Source: an uncultured Gemmatimonadota bacterium (GTDB lineage Bacteria > JAAXHH01). From it: DNA of 64,000 bases. Positions 10,954 to 45,886 of the stretch are shown here, piece after piece (the stretch's first letter is position 1; each line of letters begins with the position of its first letter). The notes beneath the pieces were generated by a model. It saw only the letters and a program-made list of their open reading frames with translations. It made no database searches and was not told the origin of the DNA. Both the position numbers and the translations under genes were made by a program. The stretch spans positions 1,664,001 through 1,728,000 of the forward strand of contig OX638340.1 of the NCBI GenBank assembly GCA_951812955.1. Reading direction: 5' to 3'.

Positions 10954-11730
10954 ATGCTCTTATTCGATTTCGACGGGGTACTGCTGAACTCCGTCGTAGA
11001 GATGTCTATTACGGCTTACAACACGGTCACCGGCGGTCTCGCTACTTCTCCAGACGACCTGCCCGGCAACGCGGCGGAGCTGTTTGTGACCAACCGGTAC
11101 CACGTCCAACCGGCCGGTGACGCGATCAACCTGATGACCTGGTGTATAGACAATGCCGGCCTGCCCGGCGACCACCGGCTGGAACCGGAGGAATACCTGG
11201 CGATCCGCGAGGCGTCGGACGTCCCCCTGAAGGAACGTACGGGCAGTTTCTTCGCAGGCCGAAAGCGGTTAGTCACTCAAGATCCGGTCCAGTGGGCGTC
11301 GCTCAACACGGTGTACCAGCCGGTCTGGGATGTATTGAAAGGACAGGGCGCCGAAGGGATCGTGATCCTTACCAACAAAAACCGGGAAGCCACCGTGACC
11401 CTGTGTCACCACTTCGGCCTTGCCGTCCGGGACGGAAACGTGTACTCGGGCGATCACGGAACGACCAAGATCGAGAATCTGCTCGCGATCCGGGCGCGTT
11501 TCGAACGGGAACGCTACGGATTCATCGACGACTCCATCGGCAACCTGGAGGAGCTCGATGCCCATTTCAACAGGGATGAACCCCTTCTCGAACTGATGCT
11601 GGCTTCCTGGGGTTACATAGGACCGGACGACCACGCGGCGGCCCGCCGCGCCGGTTATGCCATCTACGAACAGGCCGACCTCATCGCGCGAGTCACCTCG
11701 ATGAAGGGCGTCGAACTGGGCAGCTCATAA
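10954..11730 (+). CDS. HAD-like hydrolase
   Basis: N-terminal LLFDFDGVL DxD motif. A GTG at 10921 overlapping the upstream stop is an alternative start. Confidence 0.6.
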   Translation: MLLFDFDGVLLNSVVEMSITAYNTVTGGLATSPDDLPGNAAELFVTNRYHVQPAGDAINLMTWCIDNAGLPGDHRLEPEEYLAIREASDVPLKERTGSFFAGRKRLVTQDPVQWASLNTVYQPVWDVLKGQGAEGIVILTNKNREATVTLCHHFGLAVRDGNVYSGDHGTTKIENLLAIRARFERERYGFIDDSIGNLEELDAHFNRDEPLLELMLASWGYIGPDDHAAARRAGYAIYEQADLIARVTSMKGVELGSS

Positions 11731-11789
11731 ATCGGAAACCAGGCAGCTCATGAATCGGAAACCAGGCAGCTCATGAATCGGAAACCAGA
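11721..11789. repeat. 23-bp direct repeat x3 (CAGCTCAT[A/G]AATCGGAAACCAGG) spanning the HAD stop and the kinase start
   Basis: Seen directly. Copy 1 carries the TAA stop of the upstream gene. Copy 2 carries an ATG that is out of frame with the kinase. Copy 3 carries the kinase ATG at 11773. Confidence 0.8.
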
Positions 11790-12831
11790 CAGCCACTCCG
11801 GCAGCGAGCTTGAGGTCATCGAACGTTTCCCGGAACTGCGCGCCCTCGTCGTCGGGGACATCATGCTCGACGTTTACGAGTTCTGCCGAACCGGGGACAG
11901 CAAGCCCATCGATTCGGAGAAGGCGGGAAAGCGGGCCTACAAGGCGCAGGAAACGATCAAGGTGCTCGGCGGCGCGGGCAACGTGGCGGCCAACCTGGCT
12001 TCCCTGGACGTGCAGACCACCCTCGTGGGCGTGACGGGCAACGACGAACATTACTTTAAGATCCGCGATCTCGCGGACGATCTGGAAATACGCCACGGCC
12101 TGATCCGGGACGAGCGCCGCCCCACCACGATCAAGGCCCGCCTGTACCTGGACGACGACTACCTGCTGCGGCGCGATACCGAGTGCGCCGACCGGATCGA
12201 CGGCGGCACCTCGGCCGCGCTGGCGAAGGAAGTCCTTCGCGCACTGCCGGAGACCGACGTCGTGATCCTCAGCGATTATGACAAAGGGGTCTTTACCGCG
12301 GCGAACACCGGTCAGATCATCCGCGAATGCCGCCTCAATGAAATCCCCGTCGTGGTTGATTTCAAGCCGGGCAACCGGGCGTTCTTCGCCGGCGCGGACA
12401 TCATCGCCCCGAACGCCGCCGAGGCCGCCGAGCTTATCGGCGGGTTTTCCATGGACCGGCTGGGTTCCGACTGCCGGCGGCTGCATGCTTCGCTGGGTTG
12501 CCGGAACACAGTCGTCACGCTGGGAGAGCAGGGACTCTGCGGCGTGGGGCCGGACGGCTTCTTCCATGTACGGGGCCATCGCGTCAAACCCGTGGACAAG
12601 GTCGGTTGCGGCGACACCGTGCGGGCGGGGCTGGCCATCGGCGCGGCGCTGGGGCTTCCCCTCGAGGAGTCGGGGGAACTCGCAAACGACGCGGCGACGG
12701 TCATCGTGCAGAAACCGGCTACCTCGGTCCTTTCCCGGGGAGAACTCAGGAATTTCGTATCGGGAAAACAAGAAGTCAGTCCACCACCCGCGGCGGCGCT
12801 GGTCGGACGCGGGGGAGCGTCCGACGGGTAA
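11773..12831 (+). CDS. PfkB/ribokinase-family carbohydrate kinase (heptose-7-phosphate kinase-like)
   Basis: GG motif KVLGGAGNVA and the C-terminal anion-hole motif GCGDTVRAG. Confidence 0.75.
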   Translation: MNRKPDSHSGSELEVIERFPELRALVVGDIMLDVYEFCRTGDSKPIDSEKAGKRAYKAQETIKVLGGAGNVAANLASLDVQTTLVGVTGNDEHYFKIRDLADDLEIRHGLIRDERRPTTIKARLYLDDDYLLRRDTECADRIDGGTSAALAKEVLRALPETDVVILSDYDKGVFTAANTGQIIRECRLNEIPVVVDFKPGNRAFFAGADIIAPNAAEAAELIGGFSMDRLGSDCRRLHASLGCRNTVVTLGEQGLCGVGPDGFFHVRGHRVKPVDKVGCGDTVRAGLAIGAALGLPLEESGELANDAATVIVQKPATSVLSRGELRNFVSGKQEVSPPPAAALVGRGGASDG

Positions 12832-16412: not shown

Positions 16413-18233
16413 CTACTCCTCGCCCACGATGGGCTTGATGTCGTCGATGGACCGCCAGAGGGCGTCTTCGAAGAGCGTCATGGGCTTGCTGCCATAGGTA
16501 TCCACCCATTGCTTCGACAGGATCAGGATGGCGTCCACCGTCAACGTCTCCACGCTGCTGTCGAGATAGCCGAAGAGCCAGCCCTCCTGAAGTTCCGGGT
16601 AGGTCTCGTGGGGGATCGACGCCACCTCGTAGATCGTGTTGCCGAACTGATCCACGGCCGTGCTGAAATAGTGCTCGTCCACGGCGACCATGCTCAGCTG
16701 TCCACCGTATTGCCGGTCCGCATCCTTCAGCAGTTCGGAGTTTAACCCGGCGACGAACAACATGACCGAGTTGGGATCCCCGGCCACCTGGCTCAGGGCC
16801 TCATCGTAGCTGGCGAACCGCGTGTTGAACTCCCCGTACCTGGGATCCTGGAGGACGAATCCTTCCCAGGCCCTGTGGGTACCAGAACCGCGGGGACCGA
16901 CGTACACGATATGGGTGTTCGGCTGGAGGTCCGAGACGCTTGCGATGCCCCCGCCCTCATTGACGATCAACTGCACGTACTCGGTGTACAGGGTGGACTG
17001 CAGCCCGACCAGTTGTTCCGCCGAAGCCGGGTTCTTCCTCAGGTAGGAGTTCAGAATGTCGCTTTGCACGAGCACCGCGTCGGCCTGGTTCTGGACCAGG
17101 TTGTTCAGGTTTTCTTCCGAACCGGCCGTCGTCTGGAGCATCACGTCGAAATCAGGCAGGTGAGACTGCAGGATCTGGCCGAATCGATGGTAGTTGCCGT
17201 TCTCCACCCCGGTGTTCACCGTGATGCGCGGCTGGTTCGGATCGGCGGTGGCCACGACTTCGGCGGCCAGGGCGATCGCCGGGGTCACCCCTGGCGGCAG
17301 GTATTCGGGATCTCTGGGCGTGCCTTCCAGCGTGGCGACCTGCTTGTCCAGTTCATCCAGCTTCGCGCGCAGTTCCGCGTTGTCCTCGGCCAGGCGTTCG
17401 GCCTCGCCGCGCCACTCCTTGTAACCCGGATCATTGGCGTGATGGTGGGCCATGGCGTAGTGACGGCGGCTGCTCATCATGTCCAGCATAGACCACATGA
17501 ACAGGGCGTCCCACATCCCAAAGCTGGGATAGGACATGAAGGCGTATCCCGGCGTGCGCCAGCCCATGCCCCCGTAGTAGCTGTCCCGGCCGGCATAGTA
17601 ATTGTCGTAGGAGGTGCGGTTCTGCGAGCCCCGTTGGTATATCCCGTTGTCCCGGTACGTGCTCGTGTTTGCGGCCGAGTTGGACGACCGGGCGAATCCG
17701 GACTGTCGCGACTGGTGGGTGTTCAGCGACCTGCGGGCCGTCTCGCTCTGTACCCGCCTGCCCATGACCGATGACCGGGCCGTGGCCCGTCCGGTCGAAG
17801 CGCCCGAGACCGCACCGCCGGCCCGGGTGGACCTGGCCGCGGTGGCCGTGGACCGCTGGGCGGACGTGCTTCGTGCCGGCGTGGCGGACTGGCCCGTTGT
17901 GCGGGCGGGTGTCTGCCGCGTGGCGGTGGTTGTACTTTTCCGTGAGAAAATGCTGCGGCGGCCGAATGAACTGCGGCGGTTCCAAAGCGACCGCGAACTG
18001 CGGAATCCACCGAAACCGCGGCGTGCGTAGGCTTCTTCAGGGCTGAACAGTCCGGTGATCTGCCGTATCGTTCGGTCCGCGTTATCCGCGCTTTCCACGG
18101 GTGGCACGGCATCGTCGATCGACCGCACACGGTCCGTCAATCCGGGACTGTTGCCACCCGGACTGATCTGCAGAAACCCGCCTGTCAGCACGAGCAAGCC
18201 GGCAATCATAAGCAGTTTTAATTTTCGAGACAT
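16413..18233 (-). CDS. secreted protein with an Arg/Ser/Thr-rich disordered linker and a C-terminal TAXI-like (TRAP-type) periplasmic binding domain
   Basis: Signal peptide. About 150 aa of low-complexity R/S/T-rich sequence. The C-terminal ~300 aa resembles TAXI-family solute-binding proteins. A coiled-coil segment (AERLAEDNAELRAKLDELDKQVATLEG) lies in between. Confidence 0.5.
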   Translation of the reverse strand: MSRKLKLLMIAGLLVLTGGFLQISPGGNSPGLTDRVRSIDDAVPPVESADNADRTIRQITGLFSPEEAYARRGFGGFRSSRSLWNRRSSFGRRSIFSRKSTTTATRQTPARTTGQSATPARSTSAQRSTATAARSTRAGGAVSGASTGRATARSSVMGRRVQSETARRSLNTHQSRQSGFARSSNSAANTSTYRDNGIYQRGSQNRTSYDNYYAGRDSYYGGMGWRTPGYAFMSYPSFGMWDALFMWSMLDMMSSRRHYAMAHHHANDPGYKEWRGEAERLAEDNAELRAKLDELDKQVATLEGTPRDPEYLPPGVTPAIALAAEVVATADPNQPRITVNTGVENGNYHRFGQILQSHLPDFDVMLQTTAGSEENLNNLVQNQADAVLVQSDILNSYLRKNPASAEQLVGLQSTLYTEYVQLIVNEGGGIASVSDLQPNTHIVYVGPRGSGTHRAWEGFVLQDPRYGEFNTRFASYDEALSQVAGDPNSVMLFVAGLNSELLKDADRQYGGQLSMVAVDEHYFSTAVDQFGNTIYEVASIPHETYPELQEGWLFGYLDSSVETLTVDAILILSKQWVDTYGSKPMTLFEDALWRSIDDIKPIVGEE

Positions 18234-19829: not shown

Positions 19830-20276
19830 TCACCGCCTGAATCTGCCAGAACCGCCTCGCCCCATTTGCGATGCTTCCTCCACCAGTTTATCGAACGTCT
19901 TCATCGCGTCCGGCGAAAGCACACCCTTCAGGTTCGTCTTGAACTGCTTTTCGTTTTCCTCCAGTTGTTCACGCAGCCATTTCCAGTCTTCGGTCTTCCT
20001 GGCCTGTTCCAGCAGCGCGTCCTTCTGCGTTGATGCTTCCTTGACCATGGCGCGCAGTTGCAGCACCTGATCGTCGGTCGTATCCATGCGTATACTAAGC
20101 ACGTGCCAGATCTGATCGACACGGAAGGTGTTCATCGCTTGCATTTGTTCCAACATGGCACTGTTCTGTCCCCGGCCGCCCATTCGGCCGAATCCGCCTC
20201 GCTGCGCGGCCGCGTCGTTGGCGATATAGGCAATCATCATCAGGCCGATTACGGCAAGGTGAAGACGGTATTTCAT
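19830..20276 (-). CDS. Spy/CpxP-family periplasmic protein (LTXXQ motifs)
   Basis: Signal peptide MKYRLHLAVIGLMMIAYIA. Helical protein with LTXXQ-like motifs. Start is ATG 20276. Confidence 0.6.
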   Translation of the reverse strand: MKYRLHLAVIGLMMIAYIANDAAAQRGGFGRMGGRGQNSAMLEQMQAMNTFRVDQIWHVLSIRMDTTDDQVLQLRAMVKEASTQKDALLEQARKTEDWKWLREQLEENEKQFKTNLKGVLSPDAMKTFDKLVEEASQMGRGGSGRFRR

Positions 20277-20369
20277 GCTATGACTCCCTTCAATTAGATG
20301 CCGCGGTCGGACTGGGGATCCTTCCGCGGCGGGTTCTCGCTCCAATAACCAGCGGTCAGCTAACAATTG

Positions 20370-20424
20370 AACGGTGAACTTTCATTCTAACGGTGGACTT
20401 TCATTCTAACGGTGGACTTCACTT
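20370..20424. repeat. 19-bp tandem repeat x3 (AACGGTGGACTTTCATTCT) between two Spy/CpxP-like genes
   Basis: Seen directly at 20370-20388, 20389-20407 and 20408-20424 (last copy degenerate). Confidence 0.75.
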
Positions 20425-21088
20425 AACGCCGGTCGCGGAATGATTCACGGCCTCCCCGGCGTCCGCGCATCCCGGAATCCCGGCGTCCGTCGCGCCGGTC
20501 GCGGAATGATTCGCGCAGCTCTTCCTGCTGTTCCGGTGTCAGCACGTTCTTGACCTCGGCGCGGAAGACGGCGCCTCGCTCGAACACGCTGCCCTGCGCC
20601 CTGGACACGGCCGCGGCCAGCTCTTTCACTTTTTCCAGGTCCGGGCTGGTCTCGCCCATCAACTCGTTCAGATCAATCCGTGCGAGCCTCGAATCGGCGC
20701 GAAGCTGGACCATGTCCCGTGCATACGCTGAACGCAGCGTGCTGATCTGTTCCTGTTGCTCGTCTGTGAGTTCGATATTGTTCAATGCCCTGCGGGACAG
20801 GTCGTTCCCGCGCGACCGGTCGTTCCCGCGGGACCTGCCGGTACGTGCTGCGTCGTTATCGGCAAGATTGTGGTCCAGGGCGTCGGCGAACTCTCCCGCT
20901 GATCCTGATTCCGCGAACTCGGCAATTAGCTCGAATTCGGATTCTGCCTCGTGCTCCGCGCCCGCCGTGGCGGCTTCGTGATGGCCGCCGCCCTCATTAT
21001 GACTGATCTTTCCCGCAGCATCGAAAGCCCAGGCCAGAACGGCCACGGACAGCGTGCCTGCGAAGATTCCTGTAATCATCTTTTTCAT
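20423..21088 (-). CDS. Spy/CpxP-family periplasmic protein
   Basis: Signal peptide MKKMITGIFAGTLSVAVLAWA. Two clear LTXXQ motifs (LTDEQQEQI, LTPEQQEEL). AGGAG ribosome-binding site. Arg/Asp-rich repetitive tail. Confidence 0.7.
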   Translation of the reverse strand: MKKMITGIFAGTLSVAVLAWAFDAAGKISHNEGGGHHEAATAGAEHEAESEFELIAEFAESGSAGEFADALDHNLADNDAARTGRSRGNDRSRGNDLSRRALNNIELTDEQQEQISTLRSAYARDMVQLRADSRLARIDLNELMGETSPDLEKVKELAAAVSRAQGSVFERGAVFRAEVKNVLTPEQQEELRESFRDRRDGRRDSGMRGRRGGRESFRDRR

Positions 21089-21163
21089 GCTGTAGCTCCT
21101 TTCGAAATACACCCTGACTGAAATGGTCGCGATCTCCGGAGACCGTTTTCGTGCTTCTCTACA

Positions 21164-23675: not shown

Positions 23676-24149
23676 ATGGCTTTCGATCACATGGATCAAC
23701 GGCGGATCATGGGGCATTTCGCGACCGGCGTGACCGTCGTAACCACCTGGCATGAAAATAAACCCCAGGGCATGACCGCAAACGCGGTGGCTTCGCTTTC
23801 TCTTGACCCTCCACTCGTCCTCGTATCGGTGGACGTCAAGGCCCAGATGAACGGCTGTCTCAAGGAAAGCAACTGCTTCGCCGTCAACATACTGACAGAG
23901 GCACAGGAAGCATGGTCCGTACGATTCGCTAAACACGGTCCGAAGGATTTCTCAGACATCGATTACCGTACCGAAACCACAGGCTCCCCCGTTCTCGAGC
24001 AGGCACTGGCCTATGTCGACTGCAGGGTCAAGGATATACTGCCGGGGGGGGACCACGACATCTTCATCGGCGAGATTGTAGCGGGAGGCGCCCGGGAAGG
24101 GCGCCCGCTGGTCTTCTACGGCGGTCAGTACGGCAGTCTTTCCGGCTGA
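23676..24149 (+). CDS. flavin reductase family protein (FMN-binding split barrel)
   Basis: Flavin-reductase motifs (FATGVTVVTT, GMTANAVASLSLDPPLVLVSV, DHDIFIGEIV). Confidence 0.8.
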   Translation: MAFDHMDQRRIMGHFATGVTVVTTWHENKPQGMTANAVASLSLDPPLVLVSVDVKAQMNGCLKESNCFAVNILTEAQEAWSVRFAKHGPKDFSDIDYRTETTGSPVLEQALAYVDCRVKDILPGGDHDIFIGEIVAGGAREGRPLVFYGGQYGSLSG

Positions 24150-24195
24150 AACGCAACTGCTACTGTTCCGCCGACCCGTTTAATCCGGAGCGTTC

Positions 24196-25839
24196 ATGCA
24201 ATACGGTTTCATCATCGACAACAGGAAATGTATCGGGTGCCACGCCTGCACCGTCGCGTGCAAGGCCGAGCACGAGGTGCCCCTCGGCGTCAACCGGACC
24301 TGGGTGAAATACATCGAGAAGGGGACCTATCCGAACACGACCAGGCATTTCTCGGTCATGCGGTGCAATCACTGCGAGGACGCCCCCTGCGTGGAGATCT
24401 GCCCGGTGACGGCGCTGTATACGCGGAAAGACGGCATCGTGGATTTCGATCCACGCAGATGCATCGGATGCAAGGGCTGCATGCAGGCCTGCCCGTACGA
24501 CGCGCTCTACATCGACCCGGACACCCATACGGCGGCAAAGTGCAACTACTGCGCCCATCGGGTGGATATCGGCCTCGAACCCGCCTGCGTGAACGTCTGC
24601 CCTGAACACGCCATCATATCCGGCGACATGGACGATGATTCCACGGAGATCGCCCAGTTGCTCGCGAAGGAACAGGTGACGGTCCGCAAGGTGGAAAAGG
24701 ACACGAAACCCCGCCTGTACTATATCGACGGCGACGAAGCCTCGTTGACGCCCGGGGAAACCGCGACGTCCGACAATTACATGTGGAGCTCACAATCGGA
24801 CGGCGTGGGCCACTTCGCAAGATACATCGAGGAAAGGACCGCCCGCGCGAATCCGGAGGACATGGTCAGACAGCTTGGTGGGGAGAACCAGGGCGGACAG
24901 GTTGGCGGCGGGCAAGATGGCGCCGGCGTACGCGGCGAACAAGATAGCGACAAAGATGAGAGATCCGGCAAAGGCGCCGCGGCGCGCAGGGTCTACGACG
25001 CGCCGGACAAGGGCGTGCTGTGGGGAAACGACGTAGCCGCATACGTTTGGACCAAGGCCATCTCGGCGGGTGCTTTCCTCCTTCCCTTCGCGGCCTCGGT
25101 CCTGGGCATGACGATAGATCCTTTTCTTTCCTGGTTCGGAAGTACCATCGCCCTGACCTTTCTCCTGGCCACGACGATCCTCCTGGTGAGCGATCTGACC
25201 CAGCCCAGACGATTTCTCTATGTACTGCTCCGTCCTCAGTGGAAATCCTGGCTCGTGCTCGGAGGCTACGCGTTGACCCTCTACGGGCTGGCGCTCACGC
25301 TGTGGGCCGTGGCAATGTGGACCGGCCGAACCGGGGCTGCCGAAATCATCGGCTGGATCGCGGCCGTACTGGCGGTCCTTACGGCTGTATATACGGCCTT
25401 TCTATTCGCCCAGGCCAAAGGACGGGATTTCTGGCAAAGCCCCACGCTCGTCCTGCACATGCTGCTCCACGCGGTGCTCGCCGGCGCGGGGGTTTTCGCT
25501 ATCGCGCTTCTGTTCAGTGCGTCGGGCGAAGCGTGGACCGCCTTCGTCCGGAATACGCTGATCGTCGCCATCATCCTGAACCTGCTCGTAATCGCATCTG
25601 AAATGCTGACCCCCCATCCGACCGCCGACGCGCGGAAAGCCGTGCAGGCCATCGTCCGCGGCCGGTACCGGGGGTATTTCTGGATCCTGGGCATCGCCCT
25701 GGGCAACATAGCGCCCGTCGTACTGGCCTGGGCCGGTGGCGAAACGATGCTCGCCGCGGCCGGCGTGGGCGTGCTGATCGGCCTGTACGCGACCGAGTAC
25801 GTCTGGGTCAGGGCGCCGCAGGACATACCGCTGAGTTGA
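24196..25839 (+). CDS. fusion protein: 4Fe-4S dicluster ferredoxin domain (DmsB/PsrB-like) plus NrfD/PsrC-like 8-TM membrane anchor
   Basis: N-terminal domain has four Cys clusters (CIGCHACTVAC, CNHCEDAPCVEICP, CIGCKGCMQACP, CNYCAHRVDIGLEPACVNVCP). Gly-rich linker. Eight predicted TM helices in the C-terminal ~280 aa. Confidence 0.75.
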   Translation: MQYGFIIDNRKCIGCHACTVACKAEHEVPLGVNRTWVKYIEKGTYPNTTRHFSVMRCNHCEDAPCVEICPVTALYTRKDGIVDFDPRRCIGCKGCMQACPYDALYIDPDTHTAAKCNYCAHRVDIGLEPACVNVCPEHAIISGDMDDDSTEIAQLLAKEQVTVRKVEKDTKPRLYYIDGDEASLTPGETATSDNYMWSSQSDGVGHFARYIEERTARANPEDMVRQLGGENQGGQVGGGQDGAGVRGEQDSDKDERSGKGAAARRVYDAPDKGVLWGNDVAAYVWTKAISAGAFLLPFAASVLGMTIDPFLSWFGSTIALTFLLATTILLVSDLTQPRRFLYVLLRPQWKSWLVLGGYALTLYGLALTLWAVAMWTGRTGAAEIIGWIAAVLAVLTAVYTAFLFAQAKGRDFWQSPTLVLHMLLHAVLAGAGVFAIALLFSASGEAWTAFVRNTLIVAIILNLLVIASEMLTPHPTADARKAVQAIVRGRYRGYFWILGIALGNIAPVVLAWAGGETMLAAAGVGVLIGLYATEYVWVRAPQDIPLS

Positions 25840-26009
25840 GTAGGACTTACCGCTGAGTTAAGAAGGACATAGCACCGAGCTGACATAAACGCTGCCTGGC
25901 CCGTTCCGGGAATCGGCACGGCCGGAAACTGCCCCGGGTTCGACGACATTCCACTGCCGCGGGCTCGACGACACAATGAAGGAAGACACAGCAGACAGGA
26001 ATCACCAAC

Positions 26010-28871
26010 ATGTCCATACGCCATAAACCGGGACTGATCGAATCGCTGGCCGAGAAAGTCGGCCTGATTCCCAACCTGCACGAAGAGGACGGACCGGATC
26101 TGCCCAGTCTCACCGAAGGCGGCGCGCTCACGGACTATCCGCCCCCTGACCAGTGGGACGACTGGGTGGAGTACGAGGCGCAGGACTGGCCGAAACAACA
26201 GGCCAAACACTACATGGTGGTGCCGACGGCCTGCTTCAACTGCGAGGCCGGGTGCGGACTCCTCAGCTACGTCGACAAGGAGACGATGGAAGTCCGCAAG
26301 TTCGAGGGGAACCCCTACCATCCCGCCAGCCGGGGACGCAATTGCGCCAAGGGTCCAGCGACCATAAACCAGATCCGTGACACGGACCGCATACTATACC
26401 CCATGCGCCGGTCCGGCGCCCGGGGAAGCGGGGAGTGGGAGCAGGTGTCCTGGGATACGGTGCTGGACGACATCGCGGCCCGGATACGGGAGCGGCTGCA
26501 ACAGGGCGCGAACAACGAAATCGCCTATCACGTGGGCCGGCCCGGGGCCGAAGGCTACATCGACCGCGTGCTCAAGGCCTGGGGCGTCGACGGGCACAAC
26601 AGCCACACCAACATCTGCTCGTCGGGCGCCCGCTTCGGCTACGCCCTATGGCATTTCTTCGACCGGCCGTCGCCCGACCACGCCAATGCGCGGTTTATCC
26701 TGCTGATCAGCGCTCACCTGGAATCGGGGCACTACTTCAATCCCCACGCACAGCGGATCATCGAGGGCATGATGAACGGCGCGAAGCTTGCCGTCATGGA
26801 CCCGAGACTGTCCAATACGGCCAGCATGGCCGACCACTGGTTGCCCACCTATCCCGGCAGCGAGGCCGCGGTATTGCTGGCCATGGCCAACGTCATCCTG
26901 CAGGACGGCCTTTACGATGCGGAGTTCATGAAGACGTGGGTGAACTGGCAGACCTACCTGGAGAAGGAACACCCGGAAGCACCGCGCACCTTCGATCGGT
27001 TCATCGAAGCGCTCAAGTCGGTCTACAGCGAGTACACGCCCGAGTTCGCCGAACAGGAGAGCGGCGTGCCGGCTGCCCAGATTGCCGAGATCGGCCGCGA
27101 GATCGGCCGGGCGGGATCGCGGTTCGCCACCCACAACTGGCGCAGCGCGGGTAGCGGAAACGCCGGCGGCTGGGCCGTGGCCCGCTGCCTCCACTTCCTG
27201 AACGTACTCACCGGCAGCGTGGGCACGGAGGGTGGGACCTCGCCGAGCGGGTGGAACAAGTTCAAACCCAACGTATTCGACCATCCCCCGGATCAGAAGT
27301 TTTGGAACGAACTGCATTTCCCGAAGGAATACCCCCTCTCCCACTACGAGATGAGTTTTCTCCTCCCCCATTTCCTGAAAGAAGGACGGGGGAAGCTGGC
27401 TGTCTACTTCACCCGGGTGTTCAATCCCGTGTGGACGTACCCGGACGGGTTTACCTGGGTCGAAGCGCTCCGCGATGAGGAGAAGGTCGGGCTGCACGCG
27501 GCCCTGACGCCTACGTGGAACGAGACCGCCTTTTTCGCCGACTACGTACTGCCCATGGGCCACGCCAGCGAACGCCACGACATTATCAGCTACGAGACCC
27601 ACTCGGGCACCTGGATCGGTTTCCGCCAGCCCGTCCTGCGCGAGGCCCGGCGTCGCATGGGCGACCCGGTGGATTTCACCTACGAGGCGAACCCCGGCGA
27701 GGTATGGGAAGAGGACGAGTTCTGGATCGAGCTGTCCTGGCGCATCGATCCCGACGGCAGCCTGGGGATCAGGGACCACTTCATCTCGCCGTACAGGCCG
27801 GGTGAGAAAATCACCATCGACGAATACTACCGGTACATCTTCGACAACGTGGACGGACTGCCCGAGGCCGCCGCGAAAGAGGATCTTTCAACTCTGGATT
27901 ACATGCGAAAGTACGGCGCCTTCGAGGTGGAGAAGACGGCCTACGCGAAACATCTCAAGACACTGGACGACGAGGCCGTCGCGGGCGCTAAGGTCGATCC
28001 GGAGACCAATGCCCTGGTCGCAGGCGGCAAGACCGTGGGCGTGATGGTGGACGGCGCGCCGCGGGCGGGCTTCCCCACGCCGTCTCTGAAGCAGGAGTTC
28101 TATTCCCAGACCATGGTGGACTGGGGCTGGCCGGAGTACGCCATACCCACCTACATCAAGAGCCACGTGCATCCCGACGAACTCGACCGTGAGAACGGCG
28201 AGTACCCGCTGGTGCCCACCTTCAGGCTGCCCACACTGATCCACTCGCGGTCCGGCAACGCCAAGTGGCTCAACGAGATCTCCAACCGCAATCCCGTGTG
28301 GATGCACCGGCGGGACGCCGAAAAGATGGGCATTGGCACGGACGACCTGGTCCGGGTGACCACCGAAATCGGCCATTTCGTCGACCGCGTCTGGGTCACC
28401 GAGTCCATGAAACCCGGAGTCGTCGCCTGCTCCCACCATCTCGGGCGCTGGCGGCGCAAACAGGACGCGGACGGAAACCGCTGGTCGGTGAACCTGGTGG
28501 ATATCCAGGAAGAGGACGGCGGGAAGTGGCGCATGCGTGTGATGGACGGAATCAGACCCTATGAAAGCGCAGACCGCGACTCCTCGCGCATCTTCTGGCG
28601 GGACGGCGGCGTGCACCAGAACATCACCTTCCCCGTGCACCCAGATCCCGTGAGCGGCATGCACTGCTGGCACCAGAAGGTCAAAGTGGAAAAGGCCCGC
28701 GAAGAGGACGCCTACGGGGACGTGATGGTGGATACGGAGAAGTCCTTCGAAGTCTACCGCGCATGGCTGGACCAGACCCGGCCCGCGCCAGGTCCGGGCG
28801 GCCTGCGCCGTCCCCTCTGGTTCAACCGACCCCTGCGTCCGGCCGAAGAGACCTTCTACCTGCCTGAATAG
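26010..28871 (+). CDS. molybdopterin oxidoreductase catalytic subunit (DMSO-reductase family, Psr/Phs/Ttr/Soe-like), no Tat signal
   Basis: N-terminal FeS motif C-x2-C-x3-C-x33-C (CFNCEAGCG...CAKG). 953 aa. An in-frame TGA sits 33 nt upstream of the ATG, so an N-terminal twin-arginine extension is not possible. Confidence 0.85.
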   Translation: MSIRHKPGLIESLAEKVGLIPNLHEEDGPDLPSLTEGGALTDYPPPDQWDDWVEYEAQDWPKQQAKHYMVVPTACFNCEAGCGLLSYVDKETMEVRKFEGNPYHPASRGRNCAKGPATINQIRDTDRILYPMRRSGARGSGEWEQVSWDTVLDDIAARIRERLQQGANNEIAYHVGRPGAEGYIDRVLKAWGVDGHNSHTNICSSGARFGYALWHFFDRPSPDHANARFILLISAHLESGHYFNPHAQRIIEGMMNGAKLAVMDPRLSNTASMADHWLPTYPGSEAAVLLAMANVILQDGLYDAEFMKTWVNWQTYLEKEHPEAPRTFDRFIEALKSVYSEYTPEFAEQESGVPAAQIAEIGREIGRAGSRFATHNWRSAGSGNAGGWAVARCLHFLNVLTGSVGTEGGTSPSGWNKFKPNVFDHPPDQKFWNELHFPKEYPLSHYEMSFLLPHFLKEGRGKLAVYFTRVFNPVWTYPDGFTWVEALRDEEKVGLHAALTPTWNETAFFADYVLPMGHASERHDIISYETHSGTWIGFRQPVLREARRRMGDPVDFTYEANPGEVWEEDEFWIELSWRIDPDGSLGIRDHFISPYRPGEKITIDEYYRYIFDNVDGLPEAAAKEDLSTLDYMRKYGAFEVEKTAYAKHLKTLDDEAVAGAKVDPETNALVAGGKTVGVMVDGAPRAGFPTPSLKQEFYSQTMVDWGWPEYAIPTYIKSHVHPDELDRENGEYPLVPTFRLPTLIHSRSGNAKWLNEISNRNPVWMHRRDAEKMGIGTDDLVRVTTEIGHFVDRVWVTESMKPGVVACSHHLGRWRRKQDADGNRWSVNLVDIQEEDGGKWRMRVMDGIRPYESADRDSSRIFWRDGGVHQNITFPVHPDPVSGMHCWHQKVKVEKAREEDAYGDVMVDTEKSFEVYRAWLDQTRPAPGPGGLRRPLWFNRPLRPAEETFYLPE

Positions 28872-31529: not shown

Positions 31530-32597
31530 ATGACCACTGACGACCGCCTCGTATCTCTGCTCCAGGAACTCGTGTACGCCCGGGGACCTTCAGGCCAGGA
31601 GGACGAGGTCCGGACGGTCTGTGAACGGGAACTGCAAACTCTTTGCGACGAGACCCGGGTCGACGCCGCCGGCAACGTCATCGGCCTGATGAAGGGTCTA
31701 AAGGCGGACGCCCCGGTAATCCGTGTGATGGCGCACCTGGACGAACTGGCCCTGGTCGTCAAGCGCGTCAACGAGGACGGAACCCTCCGGGTCAATCCAC
31801 TCGGAGGCATCTACCCGGCGAACTACGGGCAGGGACCTGTCGAGATCCTGGCGGACAGCGGCATCCTTCCCGGCGTGCTCTCTGTCGGACCGCAGCATAC
31901 AACGGCCGATTCCGCCCGGATCTGGGAGACCAAGATCAAGGGCGGCAACGTGGCCATGGATTGGAATCACGTGTACGTGTTCACGCGCATGACGCCGGCG
32001 CAGCTGCGGGAAGCGGGCGTGCACGCCGGCACCCGCGTGGTCATCGCCCGGTCACGGCGAGCATTCCTGGAAGTCGAAGACTGCATCGGCGGGTATTTCA
32101 TGGACAATCGGGCGGCCATCGCCATCGCCATCGGCGCGGCCGCGCGTATGAGGGACCAGGGCGTCCGGCCCGCTGGCGACGCCTACCTGGTGATGACCAC
32201 CTGCGAGGAGATCGGCGGCCACGGCGCCGCGTACGCCGCGCGGACCCTGCCCGGCGACGTGTCCCTGGCCGTGGATTCAGGACCGGCCTGCGAAGAATAC
32301 GGGGTGGCCCTTTCCGACGACCCCGTCGTAGTATACGGCGACGCCGGGGGACTCTACGACAAGTCCGTCGCGGACCGCCTGCTGGCATGCGGGCGGGAAC
32401 TGGGCATGGACCCCCAGTGCGCGTACTGGCAGAGCTACGCCTCCGACGCGTCCATGGCGAAGTCCGTGGGCCAGACGCCCCGGGCCGGCCTGCTCTGCAT
32501 CCCCACGGAGAACACCCACGGATACGAGATCATACCCCGCAACGGGTTGAACCGGTGCGTCGCCCTGCTGGCGGCCTACCTTGAAAAACCGGAGTAG
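31530..32597 (+). CDS. M42 family metallopeptidase (glutamyl aminopeptidase / FrvX-like)
   Basis: M42 motifs (DDRLVSLLQELV, AHLDELAL, GGYFMDNRAAIA, EEIGGHGA). Confidence 0.8.
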   Translation: MTTDDRLVSLLQELVYARGPSGQEDEVRTVCERELQTLCDETRVDAAGNVIGLMKGLKADAPVIRVMAHLDELALVVKRVNEDGTLRVNPLGGIYPANYGQGPVEILADSGILPGVLSVGPQHTTADSARIWETKIKGGNVAMDWNHVYVFTRMTPAQLREAGVHAGTRVVIARSRRAFLEVEDCIGGYFMDNRAAIAIAIGAAARMRDQGVRPAGDAYLVMTTCEEIGGHGAAYAARTLPGDVSLAVDSGPACEEYGVALSDDPVVVYGDAGGLYDKSVADRLLACGRELGMDPQCAYWQSYASDASMAKSVGQTPRAGLLCIPTENTHGYEIIPRNGLNRCVALLAAYLEKPE

Positions 32598-32619
32598 CCG
32601 AGAGGAGCGGAGGACCTTC

Positions 32620-33885
32620 ATGTCCCTGAAAGTCACCAACGTGGAAAGATTCACCGTCACCGTGCCCTTCACGCAGGGTCAACGGCCCATGGCCGAGCGA
32701 ACGGTATACAACTGGTCCGTCTTCGAACTGTGCAAGGTCTCAACCGACGCCGGGCTCGTGGGCTGGGGCGAGACCATCGTCCATTACATCCATGCGCGGG
32801 TGACCGACCGGAGCGTGGAACGCGTCATGGGAAAGAGCCCTGCGGACTTCATGCAGGACGATACGATTGGCGCCGGGCTGCAGATGGCCCTGTACGACGT
32901 GGTGGGCAAAGCGCTCGAGGTGCCCTGCCACAAGCTCCTGGGCAACAAGGTGCGTGACTGGGTGCCCATTTCCTGGTGGTCCAACGAAGGGCCTCCAGAC
33001 GACTGGGTCCGACAGGCGCGGGACGCTGTAGACAACGGGTACACCACCATCAAGCTCAAACAGCGGCCCTGGCATGACATCAACGAACAGATGGAGGCGA
33101 TCGACGCATCCGTGCCGCGCCACTTCCGGGTGGATCTCGACGCCAACGGTTCCATGCACAACGCGGCGGCGGCCATGCCCGTCATGCGCGGCCTGGAGCG
33201 ATTCGACATCGTGGCCATGTTCGAGACGCCCATACCGCAGACCGACATCCTGGGGAACCGCCAGCTCCGGCAGGTCATCAACCGTCCCATCGCCATGCAT
33301 TTCGGCTCGCCGCCCTACACCACGGTGGTCCGCGAAGCGGTATGTGACGGTTTCGTCGTCGGTGGAGGCGCCTCGCGGGTGATGTACCAGGGGATTCTCA
33401 GCGCGGAAGCCAACATGCCCTTCTGGCTCCAGATGGTCGGCAACGGACTTACCACCACGTGGGCCGCCCATCTCGGCGCCGTGCTCACCCACGCCACCTG
33501 GCCCGCCATCACCTGTATCAACCTGTACCGCCACCACCTGCTCAAAAGTCCCATCGAAGTCGTGGGCGGCTTCCACCGCGTGCCCGACGGACCGGGTCTG
33601 GGCGTGGAAGTGGACGAAGAGGCCATGCACGGCTTCCTCGTTCCAAACGACGTGATGCGGCCATTCCACGACCGGGACGAGCCGTACGACTTCCCGAGGC
33701 CCCGGTTTATCCGCACGGCGGTGTTTCCGGATGGGCGCCGCGTCCATTTTGGGAATATCCGCCACGGGTGGGAACTGGAGGCCTACACGCCCGGCGTACG
33801 CACGGAATACTGGCGGGAAGACGGCACCGAAGGTTTCGAAGACCTCTGGAGCCGTACGCAGGAACGGCCCGTATCCGAGGGATGA
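32620..33885 (+). CDS. enolase-superfamily enzyme (mandelate racemase/muconate lactonizing family)
   Basis: KLKQ and VDLDANGS barrel motifs. Start ATG 32620 with a GAGGAGCGGAGGA ribosome-binding site. The stop lies inside the first unit of the 21-bp repeat array. Confidence 0.75.
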   Translation: MSLKVTNVERFTVTVPFTQGQRPMAERTVYNWSVFELCKVSTDAGLVGWGETIVHYIHARVTDRSVERVMGKSPADFMQDDTIGAGLQMALYDVVGKALEVPCHKLLGNKVRDWVPISWWSNEGPPDDWVRQARDAVDNGYTTIKLKQRPWHDINEQMEAIDASVPRHFRVDLDANGSMHNAAAAMPVMRGLERFDIVAMFETPIPQTDILGNRQLRQVINRPIAMHFGSPPYTTVVREAVCDGFVVGGGASRVMYQGILSAEANMPFWLQMVGNGLTTTWAAHLGAVLTHATWPAITCINLYRHHLLKSPIEVVGGFHRVPDGPGLGVEVDEEAMHGFLVPNDVMRPFHDRDEPYDFPRPRFIRTAVFPDGRRVHFGNIRHGWELEAYTPGVRTEYWREDGTEGFEDLWSRTQERPVSEG

Positions 33886-34052
33886 ACGACCGGGGTGGTC
33901 GGACGAACGACCGGGGTGGTCGGACGAACGACCGGGGTGGTCGGACGAACGACCGGGGTGGTCGGACGAACGACCGGGGTGGTCGGACGAACGACCGGGG
34001 AGGTCGGACCAAACGACCGGGGAGGCCGGACCGAGCGACCGGGGAGGCCGGA
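33884..34052. repeat. 21-bp tandem array x8 (GAACGACCGGGGTGGTCGGAC), each unit an internal palindrome CGACC-N5-GGTCG
   Basis: Seen directly: five perfect copies at 33884-33988 and three degenerate copies to 34052. No unique spacers. Intergenic, between the enolase-family gene and the SDR gene. Confidence 0.9.
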
Positions 34053-34172
34053 CCAGACCGCATGGTGAGAACGGTGCCACGTTGACACGTAACCAGGGAT
34101 CGGTAAACTGCCGGCAAGACGGGCATTTCTTAAAAATTCGTATAAGGAAGACCAGGTAACCGGAGCAGAACC

Positions 34173-37722: not shown

Positions 37723-38949
37723 ATGCAGAACCAGAAAATCCCTTTTATAAACGCATTTTTGAGACTGGAATCCGCCAGCGGCATTCTGCTGATGCTCGCG
37801 ACCGCCCTGGCCATGGTGTTCGCGAACTCGTTCCTCGAACCGCTCTATCATCGATTGCTGGAGATAGAGATCGAGATCCGCATCGCCGCCCTGGATATCA
37901 ACAAACCGCTGCTCCTCTGGATCAACGACGGTCTGATGACCATCTTCTTCTTCCTCGTGGGACTGGAATTGAAGCGGGAATTCCTCGAGGGCGAGCTGTC
38001 GAACCGGCGCAACATCATCCTGCCCGGCATCGGCGCCGTCGGCGGTATGGTGGTCCCCGCGCTGATCTATCTCCTCATCAACAGCGACGACCCCTCCGCC
38101 TGGCGGGGCTGGGCCGTCCCGGTCGCTACGGACATCGCCTTTACCCTGGGCGTATTGACCTTGTTGGGTACGCGCGTGCCCATTTCGATCAAGGTCTTCC
38201 TGACCTCGCTGGCCATCCTGGACGACATCGGCGCGATCTTGATCATCGCGGTATTCTACACGGCGGAAATTTCGATGACCGCCCTGATAGTGGCCGCGGG
38301 TTGCGTACTCGTGCTGGTCTTCCTGAACAACAGGAACTGGGTCTCCCACAGTTCGTACATGATGGTCGGCATAGTCCTCTGGATCGCCTTGCTTAAATCC
38401 GGAGTGCACGCAACGCTTGCGGGCGTGATCCTGGCCGCGTTCATCCCCATGCGTTCCAGGACCGACCCCGACGTCTCGCCACTCAAGATCCTGGAGCACG
38501 ATCTGCACACCGTCGTGGCCTTCGTCATCCTTCCCGTGTTCGCTTTCGCCAACTCCGGTGTCATGTTGAGCGGCATTACGGCCGAACAGGCGCTTCACGG
38601 CGTACCCGTCGGGGTCGCCCTCGGACTGTTCCTGGGCAAGCAGATCGGGATATTCGCACTGTGTTGGCTGTTCATCAAGATGAAAGTGGCCGCGCTGCCG
38701 AGGGGGATGTCCTGGGCTGGCCTCTATGGGGCAAGTACCCTGTGTGGGATCGGATTCACCATGAGCCTGTTCATCGGTTCGCTGGCCTTCGGCGAAACCG
38801 ATATTCACGCCATGTTCGACGAGCGGCTGGGGATCATCGTGGGATCGCTACTGTCGGGGGTGTTGGGCTATGCCATCCTCCGATACAGCCTGCCGCCCGC
38901 CGACAAGCCGGAAGAGGTCGTCGAGCAAGAGGTCGAGCAGGTGGTTTGA
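37723..38949 (+). CDS. nhaA: Na+/H+ antiporter NhaA
   Basis: Full-length NhaA signature across 12 TM helices, including the conserved ATDIAF and the paired-Asp region. Confidence 0.9.
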   Translation: MQNQKIPFINAFLRLESASGILLMLATALAMVFANSFLEPLYHRLLEIEIEIRIAALDINKPLLLWINDGLMTIFFFLVGLELKREFLEGELSNRRNIILPGIGAVGGMVVPALIYLLINSDDPSAWRGWAVPVATDIAFTLGVLTLLGTRVPISIKVFLTSLAILDDIGAILIIAVFYTAEISMTALIVAAGCVLVLVFLNNRNWVSHSSYMMVGIVLWIALLKSGVHATLAGVILAAFIPMRSRTDPDVSPLKILEHDLHTVVAFVILPVFAFANSGVMLSGITAEQALHGVPVGVALGLFLGKQIGIFALCWLFIKMKVAALPRGMSWAGLYGASTLCGIGFTMSLFIGSLAFGETDIHAMFDERLGIIVGSLLSGVLGYAILRYSLPPADKPEEVVEQEVEQVV

Positions 38950-39152
38950 GGGGGATGATAGCAAAGATGACAGTTCATATATTCGAATTTAAGCATAAAC
39001 TGACTAGCATTCTCTACGTTGCAATTCCCAATTCATACACGCAAGCCTTACGCTGACCGGTCGTACATAGCTAGTTTGGAAAGGCACACATCTATCTAAC
39101 ACTTCACGATAGATCCATTTGGCCATTTCTGTAAGAAAACTGCAGTTTCTTT

Positions 39153-40835
39153 TTAGCTATTGGGCATAGATGTAGGATGTATCTGGTCAAGTGAAGTCTT
39201 AAAGTCCTTTATTTCATAAAGTATAAATCGATCCGCATCATTCAATAAACCACGTAAACGATTCCCATAGTCTATATCGAGATGTTTCTGGCCACCGTGT
39301 ATTATTGAGTGTATTAAAAAACTCCTCATGTATCCTTCATCACCACTTTCATTAAGACGACTGACTTCTCTAAGTACAACTTCGAACATTTCAACAATAA
39401 ACCTATACTCAAATCGCTCAGATTCCAAGATTGTGGCGAGACAAGTCCCAAGTGCAACTGCAGAAGACAAAGGGATGTTATCGTTTGGAAGTGACCAAGT
39501 ATTCCAATCAAGAATTACCCCGTTGTTTTGCTTTGGTAGGTTTCTATGGTGTGAGTCATCTGGTAATTCAGAAACTAGATGAATCCAACTACATAAAGTG
39601 CTTAATACCACATAAACCAATCTAGCCGATCGTGTTGGGAATTCGTCTGTAGTATCCACAGATGGATCAGACGAATCATAGGAACCTTCCAAAGCATCGA
39701 TAACAGACGTCATGTAATAAAGCCACATATGCCATGTAACACCCTGATAGGCTGCGGCTTTAACCATAAGGTCGAAAAACACAACTCCGACAAACACACC
39801 ATTCTCCCAACACTCATAATCGAATTCAACCGCAGTACCCTGTAAGTAATCTACAAAATCAGAAGACTTGTTTGGATTCAGTAACTGTAGGATATGCTTC
39901 CCAACCGGTTGCCATACTTCCAGTTGTAGCGCTATGTTTGCATTCGAAAAGAGAAAATACAAGAGACGATTGCTTACAGGAAACTCATAGCCATGTTGGT
40001 AAGAAATGTTCTGGTTGTATTGGATTTCTTGGTATAGAACGCTTCCTGTGTCAGCGATTAACAGGCTTAAGTATTTTTCAGAAAACTGACGACTACCAAA
40101 TATGTCCTGGTAAATCAGCGGAATCGCAAAGTACGGTCTATTTGTTGCGATATAAACCCGAAGTTCTTCGGACTGAAAAAACACGCGCGCGATGTTTTCC
40201 GCAGAATCTTGAGCACTGTACTGACTAGGTACAATAAACGCTAGTTTACCAAGCCATCGTCGCCCCACTTTAAACAAACCACTTCGATGTGTTGCTGCAG
40301 ATTGTGATTCCTGATCCAAAACCGTGTATCTTAATGCCGCAATATCTCCTTGCATGGCCCCCAAATTGTCATGATGTCGTTGTAAAAACAGCTTTCGATG
40401 TGATGCCTTCCCAATTACTGGTAAATAGGGTTCGATGAATTCAAGCAATTCAGAATACCGCTTTTCAAGCGATAACCGATCTACTATTCGAGCGATTCTT
40501 ACTAGCAAAAAGGACGAGAATAGCCTCGGGATGCTCAAGTGTATTACTATAGCAAAGATGATCCAAAACAAGACTACGAAAAAGGCAACACCGGAGGGAG
40601 AAAGTGGGCTGGATTCTTTGAAAACAATCCACGTGCATAAACTACCTAGAACAGCTGGGCAAGGTTGCCCAAAAACTTCGAAAAACTCAAGATAAACTAC
40701 TATGAAAAGCGAAACTAACGCTAGTGGGATCTGAAGGACAATGACCAGCTTAGCACGTAGTTTATCAACATGCGTGGCAAGTGTATATGCAGCTAGTACT
40801 AGAGTTAAGAATGTTAGAAAACCGTCTAGGGTCAT
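39153..40835 (-). CDS. hypothetical protein: N-terminal multi-TM segment plus a ~400-aa soluble domain, in an AT-rich islet
   Basis: Long ORF whose GC (~40%) is far below the contig's. Four to five N-terminal TM helices. No recognisable motifs. Confidence 0.55.
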   Translation of the reverse strand: MTLDGFLTFLTLVLAAYTLATHVDKLRAKLVIVLQIPLALVSLFIVVYLEFFEVFGQPCPAVLGSLCTWIVFKESSPLSPSGVAFFVVLFWIIFAIVIHLSIPRLFSSFLLVRIARIVDRLSLEKRYSELLEFIEPYLPVIGKASHRKLFLQRHHDNLGAMQGDIAALRYTVLDQESQSAATHRSGLFKVGRRWLGKLAFIVPSQYSAQDSAENIARVFFQSEELRVYIATNRPYFAIPLIYQDIFGSRQFSEKYLSLLIADTGSVLYQEIQYNQNISYQHGYEFPVSNRLLYFLFSNANIALQLEVWQPVGKHILQLLNPNKSSDFVDYLQGTAVEFDYECWENGVFVGVVFFDLMVKAAAYQGVTWHMWLYYMTSVIDALEGSYDSSDPSVDTTDEFPTRSARLVYVVLSTLCSWIHLVSELPDDSHHRNLPKQNNGVILDWNTWSLPNDNIPLSSAVALGTCLATILESERFEYRFIVEMFEVVLREVSRLNESGDEGYMRSFLIHSIIHGGQKHLDIDYGNRLRGLLNDADRFILYEIKDFKTSLDQIHPTSMPNS

Positions 40836-40933
40836 TTCAACAATCCTTCTCTTAGTAAATGGGTTTACTTCCAGTCAGGAACTCTAAAGAGCATATAAAA
40901 TAGAGTTTTTAAAAAGATCATATGGTTCTTTTA

Positions 40934-42100: not shown

Positions 42101-42242
42101 AGTAAGAATCCCTCAGTTAAACACTACGGGGCTATGGTGGAGTCTGGACCAATGCAGAACCAGTGGACAAACAGATCGAGAAAGAACCCGGGTTCTTGAC
42201 TGGTTTAAGGTAAATGGGGGTTAAAGGGGGTCAAGCCATATC

Positions 42243-42325
42243 AGTCGTGCTTCGTGGGATGTCGAGATCATGATTCCACGCTATATCATTCAGGTTATTA
42301 CGATTTCATTCGGCATTAACGTTTG
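42243..42325 (+). pseudogene. remnant of a HigB-family toxin C-terminus (…ASWDVEI…) upstream of an orphan HigA
   Basis: A short open frame encodes SRASWDVEI, which resembles the conserved HigB C-terminal (A)WDVEI(x)DYH block. The frame is closed by an upstream TAA, so no full toxin ORF exists. Confidence 0.35.
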
Positions 42326-42347
42326 ACGTTAATAACACGTAACGTTA
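42315..42347. promoter_or_regulatory. palindromic operator-like sites (ATTAACG-N5-CGTTAAT and TAACGTTA) upstream of the HigA-family gene
   Basis: Perfect inverted repeats seen at 42315-42333 and 42340-42347, in an AT-rich stretch ~80-110 nt upstream of the HigA ATG. Confidence 0.4.
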
Positions 42348-42426
42348 TTATTGTATTAGCATGATGATATCGTTCAAAGACCATTTTCGTACAGTCGAAC
42401 TTGTCGATTACCATTAGGAGTCAGAT

Positions 42427-42732: not shown

Positions 42733-42746
42733 AGCCGCAAAAGTTT

Positions 42747-43751: not shown

Positions 43752-43789
43752 AACGGGTGAGGAGTTGGTAGTCTTACTGTAAAAGGAAT

Positions 43790-45367: not shown

Positions 45368-45433
45368 TTGAATAGCCTGGCACGACCACCAGGTATTTTA
45401 TATTTGCTCTTCATCCTTAACTAGGGTCAGTAC

Positions 45434-45853: not shown

Positions 45854-45886
45854 ATTCAAGGTCGAATCAAGGTCGAACTCGGCTGA

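Follow-up and report, generated by a model that had tools for sequence, protein, structure and literature searches.

A two-polypeptide iron-sulfur molybdoenzyme predicted to face the cytoplasm in an uncultured Gemmatimonadota bacterium, with sulfite as its probable substrate

A stretch of 64,000 nucleotides (nt) from an uncultured Gemmatimonadota bacterium (contig OX638340.1, positions 1,664,001 to 1,728,000; hereafter the window) carries a molybdoenzyme in which the electron-transfer subunit and the membrane anchor are fused in one polypeptide, BC, followed by a separate catalytic subunit, A. The locus raises two questions: on which side of the membrane does this enzyme work, and what does it turn over? 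We propose that BC and A form a two-polypeptide iron-sulfur (FeS) molybdoenzyme that probably oxidizes cytoplasmic sulfite to sulfate and hands the electrons to quinone. We see in the pair an unexceptional representative of a family that is known, widespread and long predicted to oxidize sulfite, and the value of finding it in the window lies in annotation rather than in discovery.

Three open reading frames (ORFs) were found on the plus strand at 23676-24149, 24196-25839 and 26010-28871. Coordinates and Pfam domains agree with the initial annotation of this DNA, which had read them as a flavin reductase, a BC fusion and a catalytic subunit of 953 amino acids. The features of the locus are as follows.

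23676..24149, + strand: flavin reductase, HpaC/HsaB-type, 157 amino acids (Pfam Flavin_Reduct, E 1.4e-42)
24196..25839, + strand: fused electron-transfer and membrane-anchor subunit BC, 547 amino acids (Fer4_11 and NrfD in a single ORF)
24196..24765, + strand: four-cluster ferredoxin domain, BC residues 1-190 (16 Cys; match to PsrB)
24766..25005, + strand: BC linker from the FeS domain to the first transmembrane helix (TM1), rich in Gly, Gln, Asp and Glu (low conservation, variable length)
25006..25836, + strand: NrfD/PsrC-type quinone-interacting domain with eight transmembrane (TM) helices, both termini predicted to be cytoplasmic (Pfam NrfD, E 3.8e-19)
25820..25871, + strand: 22-nt tandem repeat, 2.4 copies, across the BC stop codon (Tandem Repeats Finder)
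25977..25979, + strand: in-frame TGA upstream of the A gene (direct sequence reading)
26010..28871, + strand: catalytic subunit A of the molybdenum-bis-pyranopterin guanine dinucleotide (Mo-bisPGD) type, 953 amino acids, without a twin-arginine translocation (Tat) signal (three Pfam domains)
26010..26213, + strand: acidic, conserved N-terminal extension of A, residues 1-68, with a YPPPDQWDDW motif (alignment)
26232..26345, + strand: FS0 [4Fe-4S] motif of A, Cys75, Cys78, Cys82 and Cys112 (Cys positions; Molybdop_Fe4S4 domain)
26616..26618, + strand: Cys203 of A, predicted molybdenum ligand (phmmer alignment to PsrA Cys173)

Domain content and membrane orientation

Pfam placed Fer4_11 at residues 52-144 and NrfD at residues 273-537 of BC. 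The 16 cysteines of the protein form four groups of the CxxCxxCxxxC type, and the ferredoxin domain is succeeded by eight hydrophobic helices. All eight helices were present in an AlphaFold model (pLDDT 85-96). A four-cluster ferredoxin fused to an eight-helix NrfD anchor, as first described from the letters alone, is borne out by these results. The linker had a pLDDT below 50, and the FeS domain and linker together were not confidently modeled (mean pLDDT 57.6), so that the model of BC cannot show how the domains dock. By Foldseek, the TM domain resembled PsrC (2vpw_C, target-normalized TM-score 0.76) and ActC. The ferredoxin domain matched PsrB (2vpw_B, E 3e-51). Median identity of homologues to the window protein was 77.4% in the FeS domain, 49.5% in the NrfD domain and 31.8% in the linker.

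Subunit A contains Molybdop_Fe4S4 (residues 69-121), Molybdopterin (127-528) and Molydop_binding (737-816) domains, in keeping with its earlier assignment to the DMSO reductase family. Its closest solved relative is PsrA (2vpw_A, E 4.5e-38). In the phmmer alignment Cys203 pairs with Cys173 of Thermus thermophilus PsrA, which is reported to be the molybdenum ligand (Jormakka et al. 2008). Both subunits have more than 8000 homologues each, which argues against a chance architecture. Among the best 120 matches, nearly all BC homologues are about 530-580 amino acids long and nearly all A homologues about 950-1000; the latter are 71-94% identical to A and carry generic names only.

The enzyme with the best solved counterparts for all three modules is thus PsrABC of T. 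thermophilus (PDB 2VPW-2VPZ), with which the position of the Cys ligand is shared. However, Psr is Tat-exported, faces the periplasm and consists of three separate subunits, whereas A of the window is about 190 residues longer and has the conserved acidic N-terminal extension in place of a signal peptide. No NCBIfam model reached its cutoff for A or BC (PhsA, TtrA/B, ArrA/B, DmsA/B, QrcB/C and others): A scored 184 bits on the PhsA model (cutoff 694), and BC gave a partial match of 186.8 bits on the TtrB model (cutoff 416). In lacking a twin-arginine signal and scoring below all curated cutoffs, A differs from the periplasmic Psr/Phs/Ttr enzymes.

The absence of an export signal had been claimed for A from the outset, and several lines of evidence uphold it. 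An in-frame TGA lies 33 nt before the ATG at 26010 and leaves no room for an upstream start, and hence for a hidden Tat signal; the N-terminus itself has no RR motif. Homologues from many phyla align from residue 1 in tblastn, independently of gene calls, which shows the start codon to be sound. We further collected 84 related loci, clustered their neighbors and annotated recurrent clusters with Pfam. A regular-expression scan of N-termini found no Tat signal in any of the 84 full-length A homologues from these loci; its three matches were RRYMIVPT, situated directly ahead of the FS0 cysteines and lacking a hydrophobic region. The stretch ahead of FS0 is net acidic in the homologues and has no hydrophobic run. 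Part of it, DQWDDWVE, was among the most conserved A peptides picked for the locus scan.

BC likewise has no signal peptide, and the protein opens straight at its first Cys motif. This first CxxCxxCxxxC motif starts at residue 12 both in the window and in 46 of 65 motif-containing homologue ORFs, the remaining ones being over-extended by longest-ORF gene calling. The loops on the N-terminal side of the membrane hold on average 9.95 Lys and Arg, as compared to 0.55 on the opposite side, a bias seen in all 64 aligned BC homologues. This places the FeS domain on the positive-inside side of TM1, as had been proposed. Conservation within the NrfD domain follows the same polarity (0.78 in cytoplasmic-side segments vs. 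0.30 in outer loops; columns conserved to at least 95%, 34 of 90 vs. 0 of 20), and the outer loops are only 2-8 residues long. In T. thermophilus PsrABC both termini of PsrC lie on the PsrAB side (PMC8076601), so that joining B to C at the N-terminus of the latter makes sense geometrically. Together, the fusion and the N-in topology put the entire redox arm in the cytoplasm, and a periplasmic location is effectively excluded.

From these sequence comparisons we consider the BC-A architecture and its cytoplasm-facing orientation very likely. An ordinary periplasmic Psr/Phs/Ttr enzyme whose Tat signal had been overlooked because of a misplaced start or an error in sequencing would find some backing in its nearest non-fused relatives, which do carry Tat signals (see below). 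Against this stand the upstream stop, an N-terminus conserved from Met1 across phyla, the lack of Tat signals throughout the homologues and an FeS domain fused to the cytoplasmic end of TM1 under an overwhelming positive-inside bias, and we regard such an oversight as highly improbable. The initial annotation had preferred a cytoplasm-facing, SoeABC-like enzyme over a periplasmic Psr/Phs/Ttr reductase, and export signals, charge, conservation and the gene neighborhoods described below all point the same way.

A widespread family with sulfur genes nearby

Homologues of A with 56-94% identity occur across Bacteroidota, Chlorobi, Planctomycetota, Acidobacteriota, KSB1, Actinobacteria, Chloroflexi and haloarchaea. 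Related loci at 67-99% identity, sampled as one genome per species, came from one metagenome-assembled genome (MAG, 99%, evidently the same organism as that of the window), Latescibacterota, KSB1, Calditrichota, Bacteroidota (Saprospiraceae, Cyclobacteriaceae and Flavobacteriales), Chlorobi (including Chlorobium sp. N1), Planctomycetota, Acidobacteriota and Spirochaetia. Copies on plasmids or megaplasmids were found in Thermomicrobium roseum (62.5%), Rhodococcus jostii RHA1 (58.4%) and several haloarchaea (56-59%), and inspection of three of these loci (T. roseum, R. jostii and Natrinema halophilum) showed a fused BC immediately before A each time. More divergent fused members are P0125 (40%) and P0128.

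Among 75 related loci whose upstream DNA is long enough to tell, about 68 have fused BC directly before A according to our own gene calls and a tblastn check, which makes the fusion and the gene order traits of the family. The initial annotation had called both atypical; this holds in comparison to textbook operons, but within its own large family the arrangement is the rule. A Pyrinomonadaceae MAG (L003/L082, JAWKHL010000001.1) has A with no BC upstream. There, genes for an Eco57I-type methylase and a BsuBI/PstI-type restriction enzyme precede A and may represent an insertion that split the pair. In R. jostii RHA1 pRHL3 (L005) and the N. halophilum plasmid (L006), a gene for an Mrp/NBP35-family ATPase, possibly an FeS-cluster carrier, directly follows A and overlaps its end.

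The neighborhoods of the pair are rich in genes linked to sulfur metabolism. At least one sulfur-linked neighbor was present in 41 of the 63 well-flanked loci, with the following counts among these 63 (SQR, sulfide:quinone oxidoreductase).

SulP + STAS permease: 25 loci
Metallo-beta-lactamase (MBL) and rhodanese fusion, the persulfide dioxygenase (PDO)-rhodanese architecture: 24 loci
Two Sulf_transp/YeeE-like families: 12 and 9 loci
SQR-like flavoprotein, often with DUF1641: 9 loci
Single-domain rhodanese: 8 loci
TauE: 4 loci
DsrE: 3 loci

SulP follows the pair immediately in Flavobacteriales, and TauE and DsrE neighbors were found in Chlorobi loci L052, L062 and L067-L069. DsrE, TusA, three MBL-fold hydrolases, thioredoxin and ArsR regulators surround the pair on R. 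jostii pRHL3, and a CsoR-type regulator is present at the T. roseum locus. The locus of a Myxococcota relative with 40% identity combines PDO-rhodanese with two Sulf_transp genes and the gene for a sigma-54 activator.

These neighbors support a cytoplasmic sulfite:quinone oxidation. Cells that detoxify sulfide, break down organosulfonates or carry out dissimilatory sulfur oxidation form sulfite as a toxic intermediate, and persulfide dioxygenase releases it in the cytoplasm. Where a source of cytoplasmic sulfite, an inward-facing molybdoenzyme connected to quinone and a sulfate permease are encoded side by side, the enzyme would be the obvious sulfite sink. We infer this role from the neighborhood, and sulfite appears a reasonably probable substrate.

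In the mechanism that we propose, A would mature in the cytoplasm with Mo-bisPGD (predicted ligand Cys203) and FS0 as its presumed cofactors. It would then dock on the four-cluster domain, which a flexible linker tethers to the cytoplasmic N-terminus of the eight-helix NrfD domain. The molybdenum center would oxidize sulfite to sulfate, and the two electrons would presumably cross five FeS clusters toward a quinone site at the cytoplasmic face of NrfD helices 1-4, which we place there because the most conserved loops lie in this region. The resulting quinol would feed the respiratory chain. The NrfD domain may in addition exploit the large driving force to translocate protons, a capacity discussed for this family in PMC8076601. 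In many lineages the sulfite might be supplied by the neighboring PDO-rhodanese or SQR module, and the sulfate would probably leave through the neighboring SulP.

The same architecture could in principle run in the opposite direction, with quinol reducing thiosulfate, tetrathionate, polysulfide or an organic persulfide at a cytoplasm-facing site, similar to Psr, Phs, Ttr or Sre but inverted. The closest solved structure, T. thermophilus PsrABC, and the best partial NCBIfam matches, PhsA and TtrB, would fit such a reductase. The nearest non-fused relatives are Tat-exported and stand in operons that resemble those of respiratory reductases, with a TorD-type chaperone. The Aquifex aeolicus enzyme was reportedly first described as a sulfur reductase. 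Yet the neighbors of the fused pair are oxidative or detoxifying (O2-dependent persulfide dioxygenase, SQR-like proteins, SulP), many carriers are aerobic heterotrophs (Flavobacteriales, Saprospiraceae, Rhodococcus, haloarchaea), and the pair is present in sulfur-oxidizing green sulfur bacteria. We therefore consider a reductase unlikely.

A non-sulfur substrate, such as formate, arsenite, selenite, nitrate or an organic N- or S-oxide, would be compatible with the architecture and orientation as well. Some homologues are named 'formate dehydrogenase' or 'anaerobic selenocysteine-containing dehydrogenase', no curated model that would assign a substrate reaches its cutoff, and the lineage of the window itself lacks sulfur neighbors. 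The names are, however, generic labels at the COG level, the predicted molybdenum ligand is a cysteine that aligns with the PsrA ligand, and the neighborhood signal is consistently one of sulfur across several phyla. A substrate of this kind appears rather improbable to us, and sulfite is retained as the preferred one.

Relation to PSRLC3, SoeABC and exported enzymes

A two-gene system with a predicted role in sulfite oxidation is known from green sulfur bacteria. Polysulfide-reductase-like complex 3 (PSRLC3) is encoded by two genes according to PMC5473276. Following Frigaard & Bryant 2008 and Gregersen et al. 2011, PMC9324843 describes it as 'inferred to be sulfite oxidase'. In this literature on green sulfur bacteria (PMC9324843, PMC6338057 and PMC5473276) it also appears as an 'alternative sulfite-oxidizing system' and is equated with SoeABC. 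The window pair also consists of two genes, one BC ORF and one A ORF, and likewise shows no export signal and a predicted cytoplasmic orientation. In Chlorobiaceae loci L067-L069 a fused BC is followed by an A that is 68% identical over residues 1-951 of 953, and then by a TauE-family gene. These Chlorobiaceae genes are probably those of PSRLC3, judging by gene number, predicted role and taxon, and since they share the BC-A pair, we file the genes of the window in the PSRLC3/Soe-type family. Two differences should be noted: the window stems from an uncultured bacterium of the Fibrobacteres-Chlorobi-Bacteroidetes (FCB) group, which MAG names label Latescibacterota or Gemmatimonadota, not from a phototroph, and the TauE and DsrE neighbors of some Chlorobi loci are absent beside its pair.

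SoeABC has been described as a sulfite:quinone oxidoreductase in Allochromatium vinosum (Dahl et al. 2013) and A. aeolicus (Boughanemi et al. 2020). Like the window pair, it combines a Tat-less Mo-bisPGD subunit with FS0, a four-cluster FeS protein and a catalytic side in the cytoplasm with an eight-helix NrfD-type anchor in inverted orientation (PMC8076601), and like many related BC-A loci it occurs in a context of sulfur oxidation. In contrast to the window, where B and C are one polypeptide in the order BC-A, SoeA, SoeB and SoeC are separate. A review that follows Dahl et al. 2013 calls SoeABC genes universal in purple and green sulfur bacteria (PMC8232776), and in an Ace Lake study, complex iron-sulfur molybdoenzyme (CISM) clusters of an FCB-group candidate phylum were annotated as SoeABC on phylogenetic grounds. 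Proteobacterial candidates from PLSDB plasmids (Azoarcus, Sulfurovum, Caballeronia, Rhizobium, Phaeobacter, Variovorax, Thioclava and Cereibacter), inspected after tblastn, included one Arx-like arsenite oxidase, several soluble enzymes and two Tat-dependent B-C-A operons, and no soeABC operon among them.

Several points weigh against sulfite oxidation by a Soe-type enzyme. The best matches in sequence and structure are reductases (PsrA/B, PhsA and TtrB), and gene context cannot fix the direction of catalysis. In the window and its four closest genomes no sulfur genes lie beside the pair, and BLAST of all ORFs found none of the sulfur-linked neighbor families in the whole 64-kb window. A survey of NrfD-like subunits found SoeC only in Proteobacteria, Clostridia and Aquificae (PMC8076601), which means either that the fused form was missed in the phyla described here or that it is a distinct clade. 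Orthology with SoeA of A. vinosum and A. aeolicus is putative and draws on published statements and a published tree, and in the literature we found no biochemical characterization of the fused family or of PSRLC3. Should the fused enzyme nevertheless oxidize sulfite in Bacteroidota, Acidobacteriota, Planctomycetota, Actinobacteria and haloarchaea, the extent of sulfite oxidation beyond the Proteobacteria may be underestimated in surveys. The covalent FeS-NrfD tether fixes the topology, and the family would thus offer a clean test case for quinone and proton handling by an inverted NrfD protein.

A search of representatives at 50% identity revealed the nearest non-fused relatives of A, namely P0127 (L094; 39.5% over the full length), a protein from a Sulfurovum mangrovi plasmid (L008; 38%), P0145 (L090; 32%) and P0182 (30%). 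These have separate B and C genes in the order B-C-A, after which a TorD-type chaperone and a polyferredoxin are usually encoded; the P0145 operon lacks a TorD-family chaperone. Their catalytic subunits begin with a clear RRxFLK Tat signal and its hydrophobic region, the position of which is occupied by the N-terminal extension in A of the window. After the signal, P0127, P0145 and P0182 show a YPPxExW motif, and it is this motif that opens the conserved part of A. None of the three reached an NCBIfam cutoff, including those for TtrA and PhsA. A further Tat-dependent operon with FeS, NrfD and catalytic subunits is present on an Azoarcus sp. KH32C plasmid (L007), which is not among the nearest relatives.

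The gene order of the Tat-dependent relatives is that of ttrBCA, and the B-C-A order is common to them and the window pair. The simplest reading would be that the fused form without a Tat signal descends from periplasmic B-C-A enzymes or has a common ancestor with them, and such a history would explain the seemingly odd BC-A order. More tentatively, the fused enzyme might not be a SoeABC orthologue at all but might have evolved independently, as an inside-out version of an exported B-C-A enzyme, by loss of the Tat signal, inversion of NrfD and fusion of B and C. We think this doubtful. Cytoplasm-facing oxidoreductases coupling sulfite, or another sulfur oxyanion, to quinone would then have arisen at least twice, and the commoner form, ranging over the FCB group, Acidobacteriota, Planctomycetota, Actinobacteria, Chloroflexi and haloarchaea, would have escaped enzymology and family surveys. 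In the lineage of the window, such an enzyme may also have recruited a flavin reductase.

Surroundings of the pair in the window

That a flavin reductase precedes the enzyme had been pointed out in the initial annotation. The adjacency itself stands: the gene ends 46 nt upstream of BC on the same strand, and a scan found no terminator-like site in this gap. A family-wide link does not, given that the flavin reductase adjoins BC-A in only five loci, those of the window and of L009-L012, all from the window's own lineage. All NCBIfam matches of the flavin reductase were below the cutoffs. One could imagine a three-component cytoplasmic system in which flavin reduced by NAD(P)H feeds or drains the FeS chain and quinone is not the sole partner, in line with the shared strand, the short gap and an adjacency kept in the window and four related genomes. 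The gene is, however, not beside the pair in about 80 other related loci, Flavin_Reduct proteins usually serve two-component monooxygenases, and strong conservation marks the putative quinone face of the NrfD domain. This makes such a partnership decidedly improbable, and we set the flavin reductase aside as a part of the enzyme, its adjacency not being conserved outside the window's lineage.

The spacer between BC and A is 170 nt long in the window, compared to a family median of about 27 nt; it measures 110-180 nt in the window's lineage and about 10-30 nt in most others. At the same spacer position, relatives L010 and L012 carry different tandem repeats. Promoter- and terminator-like sites were no more numerous in the window than in shuffled controls, and an Rfam search over the whole window gave no match, including no molybdenum cofactor (Moco) riboswitch.

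According to Pfam annotation of ten neighboring ORFs, the pair is flanked by an extracytoplasmic function (ECF) sigma/anti-sigma unit, an outer-membrane beta-barrel protein, the flavin reductase and a PfkB kinase, and further by an FAA-hydrolase-family protein, an M42 peptidase and enolase-superfamily proteins. Farther upstream, at a distance of about 6 kb from the enzyme genes, the minus strand encodes a 606-residue protein (16413-18233) with an NMT1_3 (NMT1-like family) domain at residues 353-547; a link to the enzyme genes would be speculative.

Segments at 38000-46000, 56000-58000 and 62000-64000 have a G+C content of 0.47-0.55 against a background of 0.58-0.66 and may have been acquired horizontally. 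Additional tandem repeats are located at 53178-53323 (38 nt, 3.8 copies), 11719-11793 (23 nt, 3.3 copies) and 20370-20419 (19 nt, 2.6 copies), the last of which lies between small minus-strand genes at 19830-20366 and 20423-21112, downstream of the ECF sigma/anti-sigma pair. At 33880-34053, a 21-nt unit is repeated 8.2 times with 94% matches. This array starts in the last codons of an enolase-superfamily gene (32581-33885), runs about 170 nt beyond its stop codon and would be translated as HPGRSSD repeats from an antisense ORF that is spurious.

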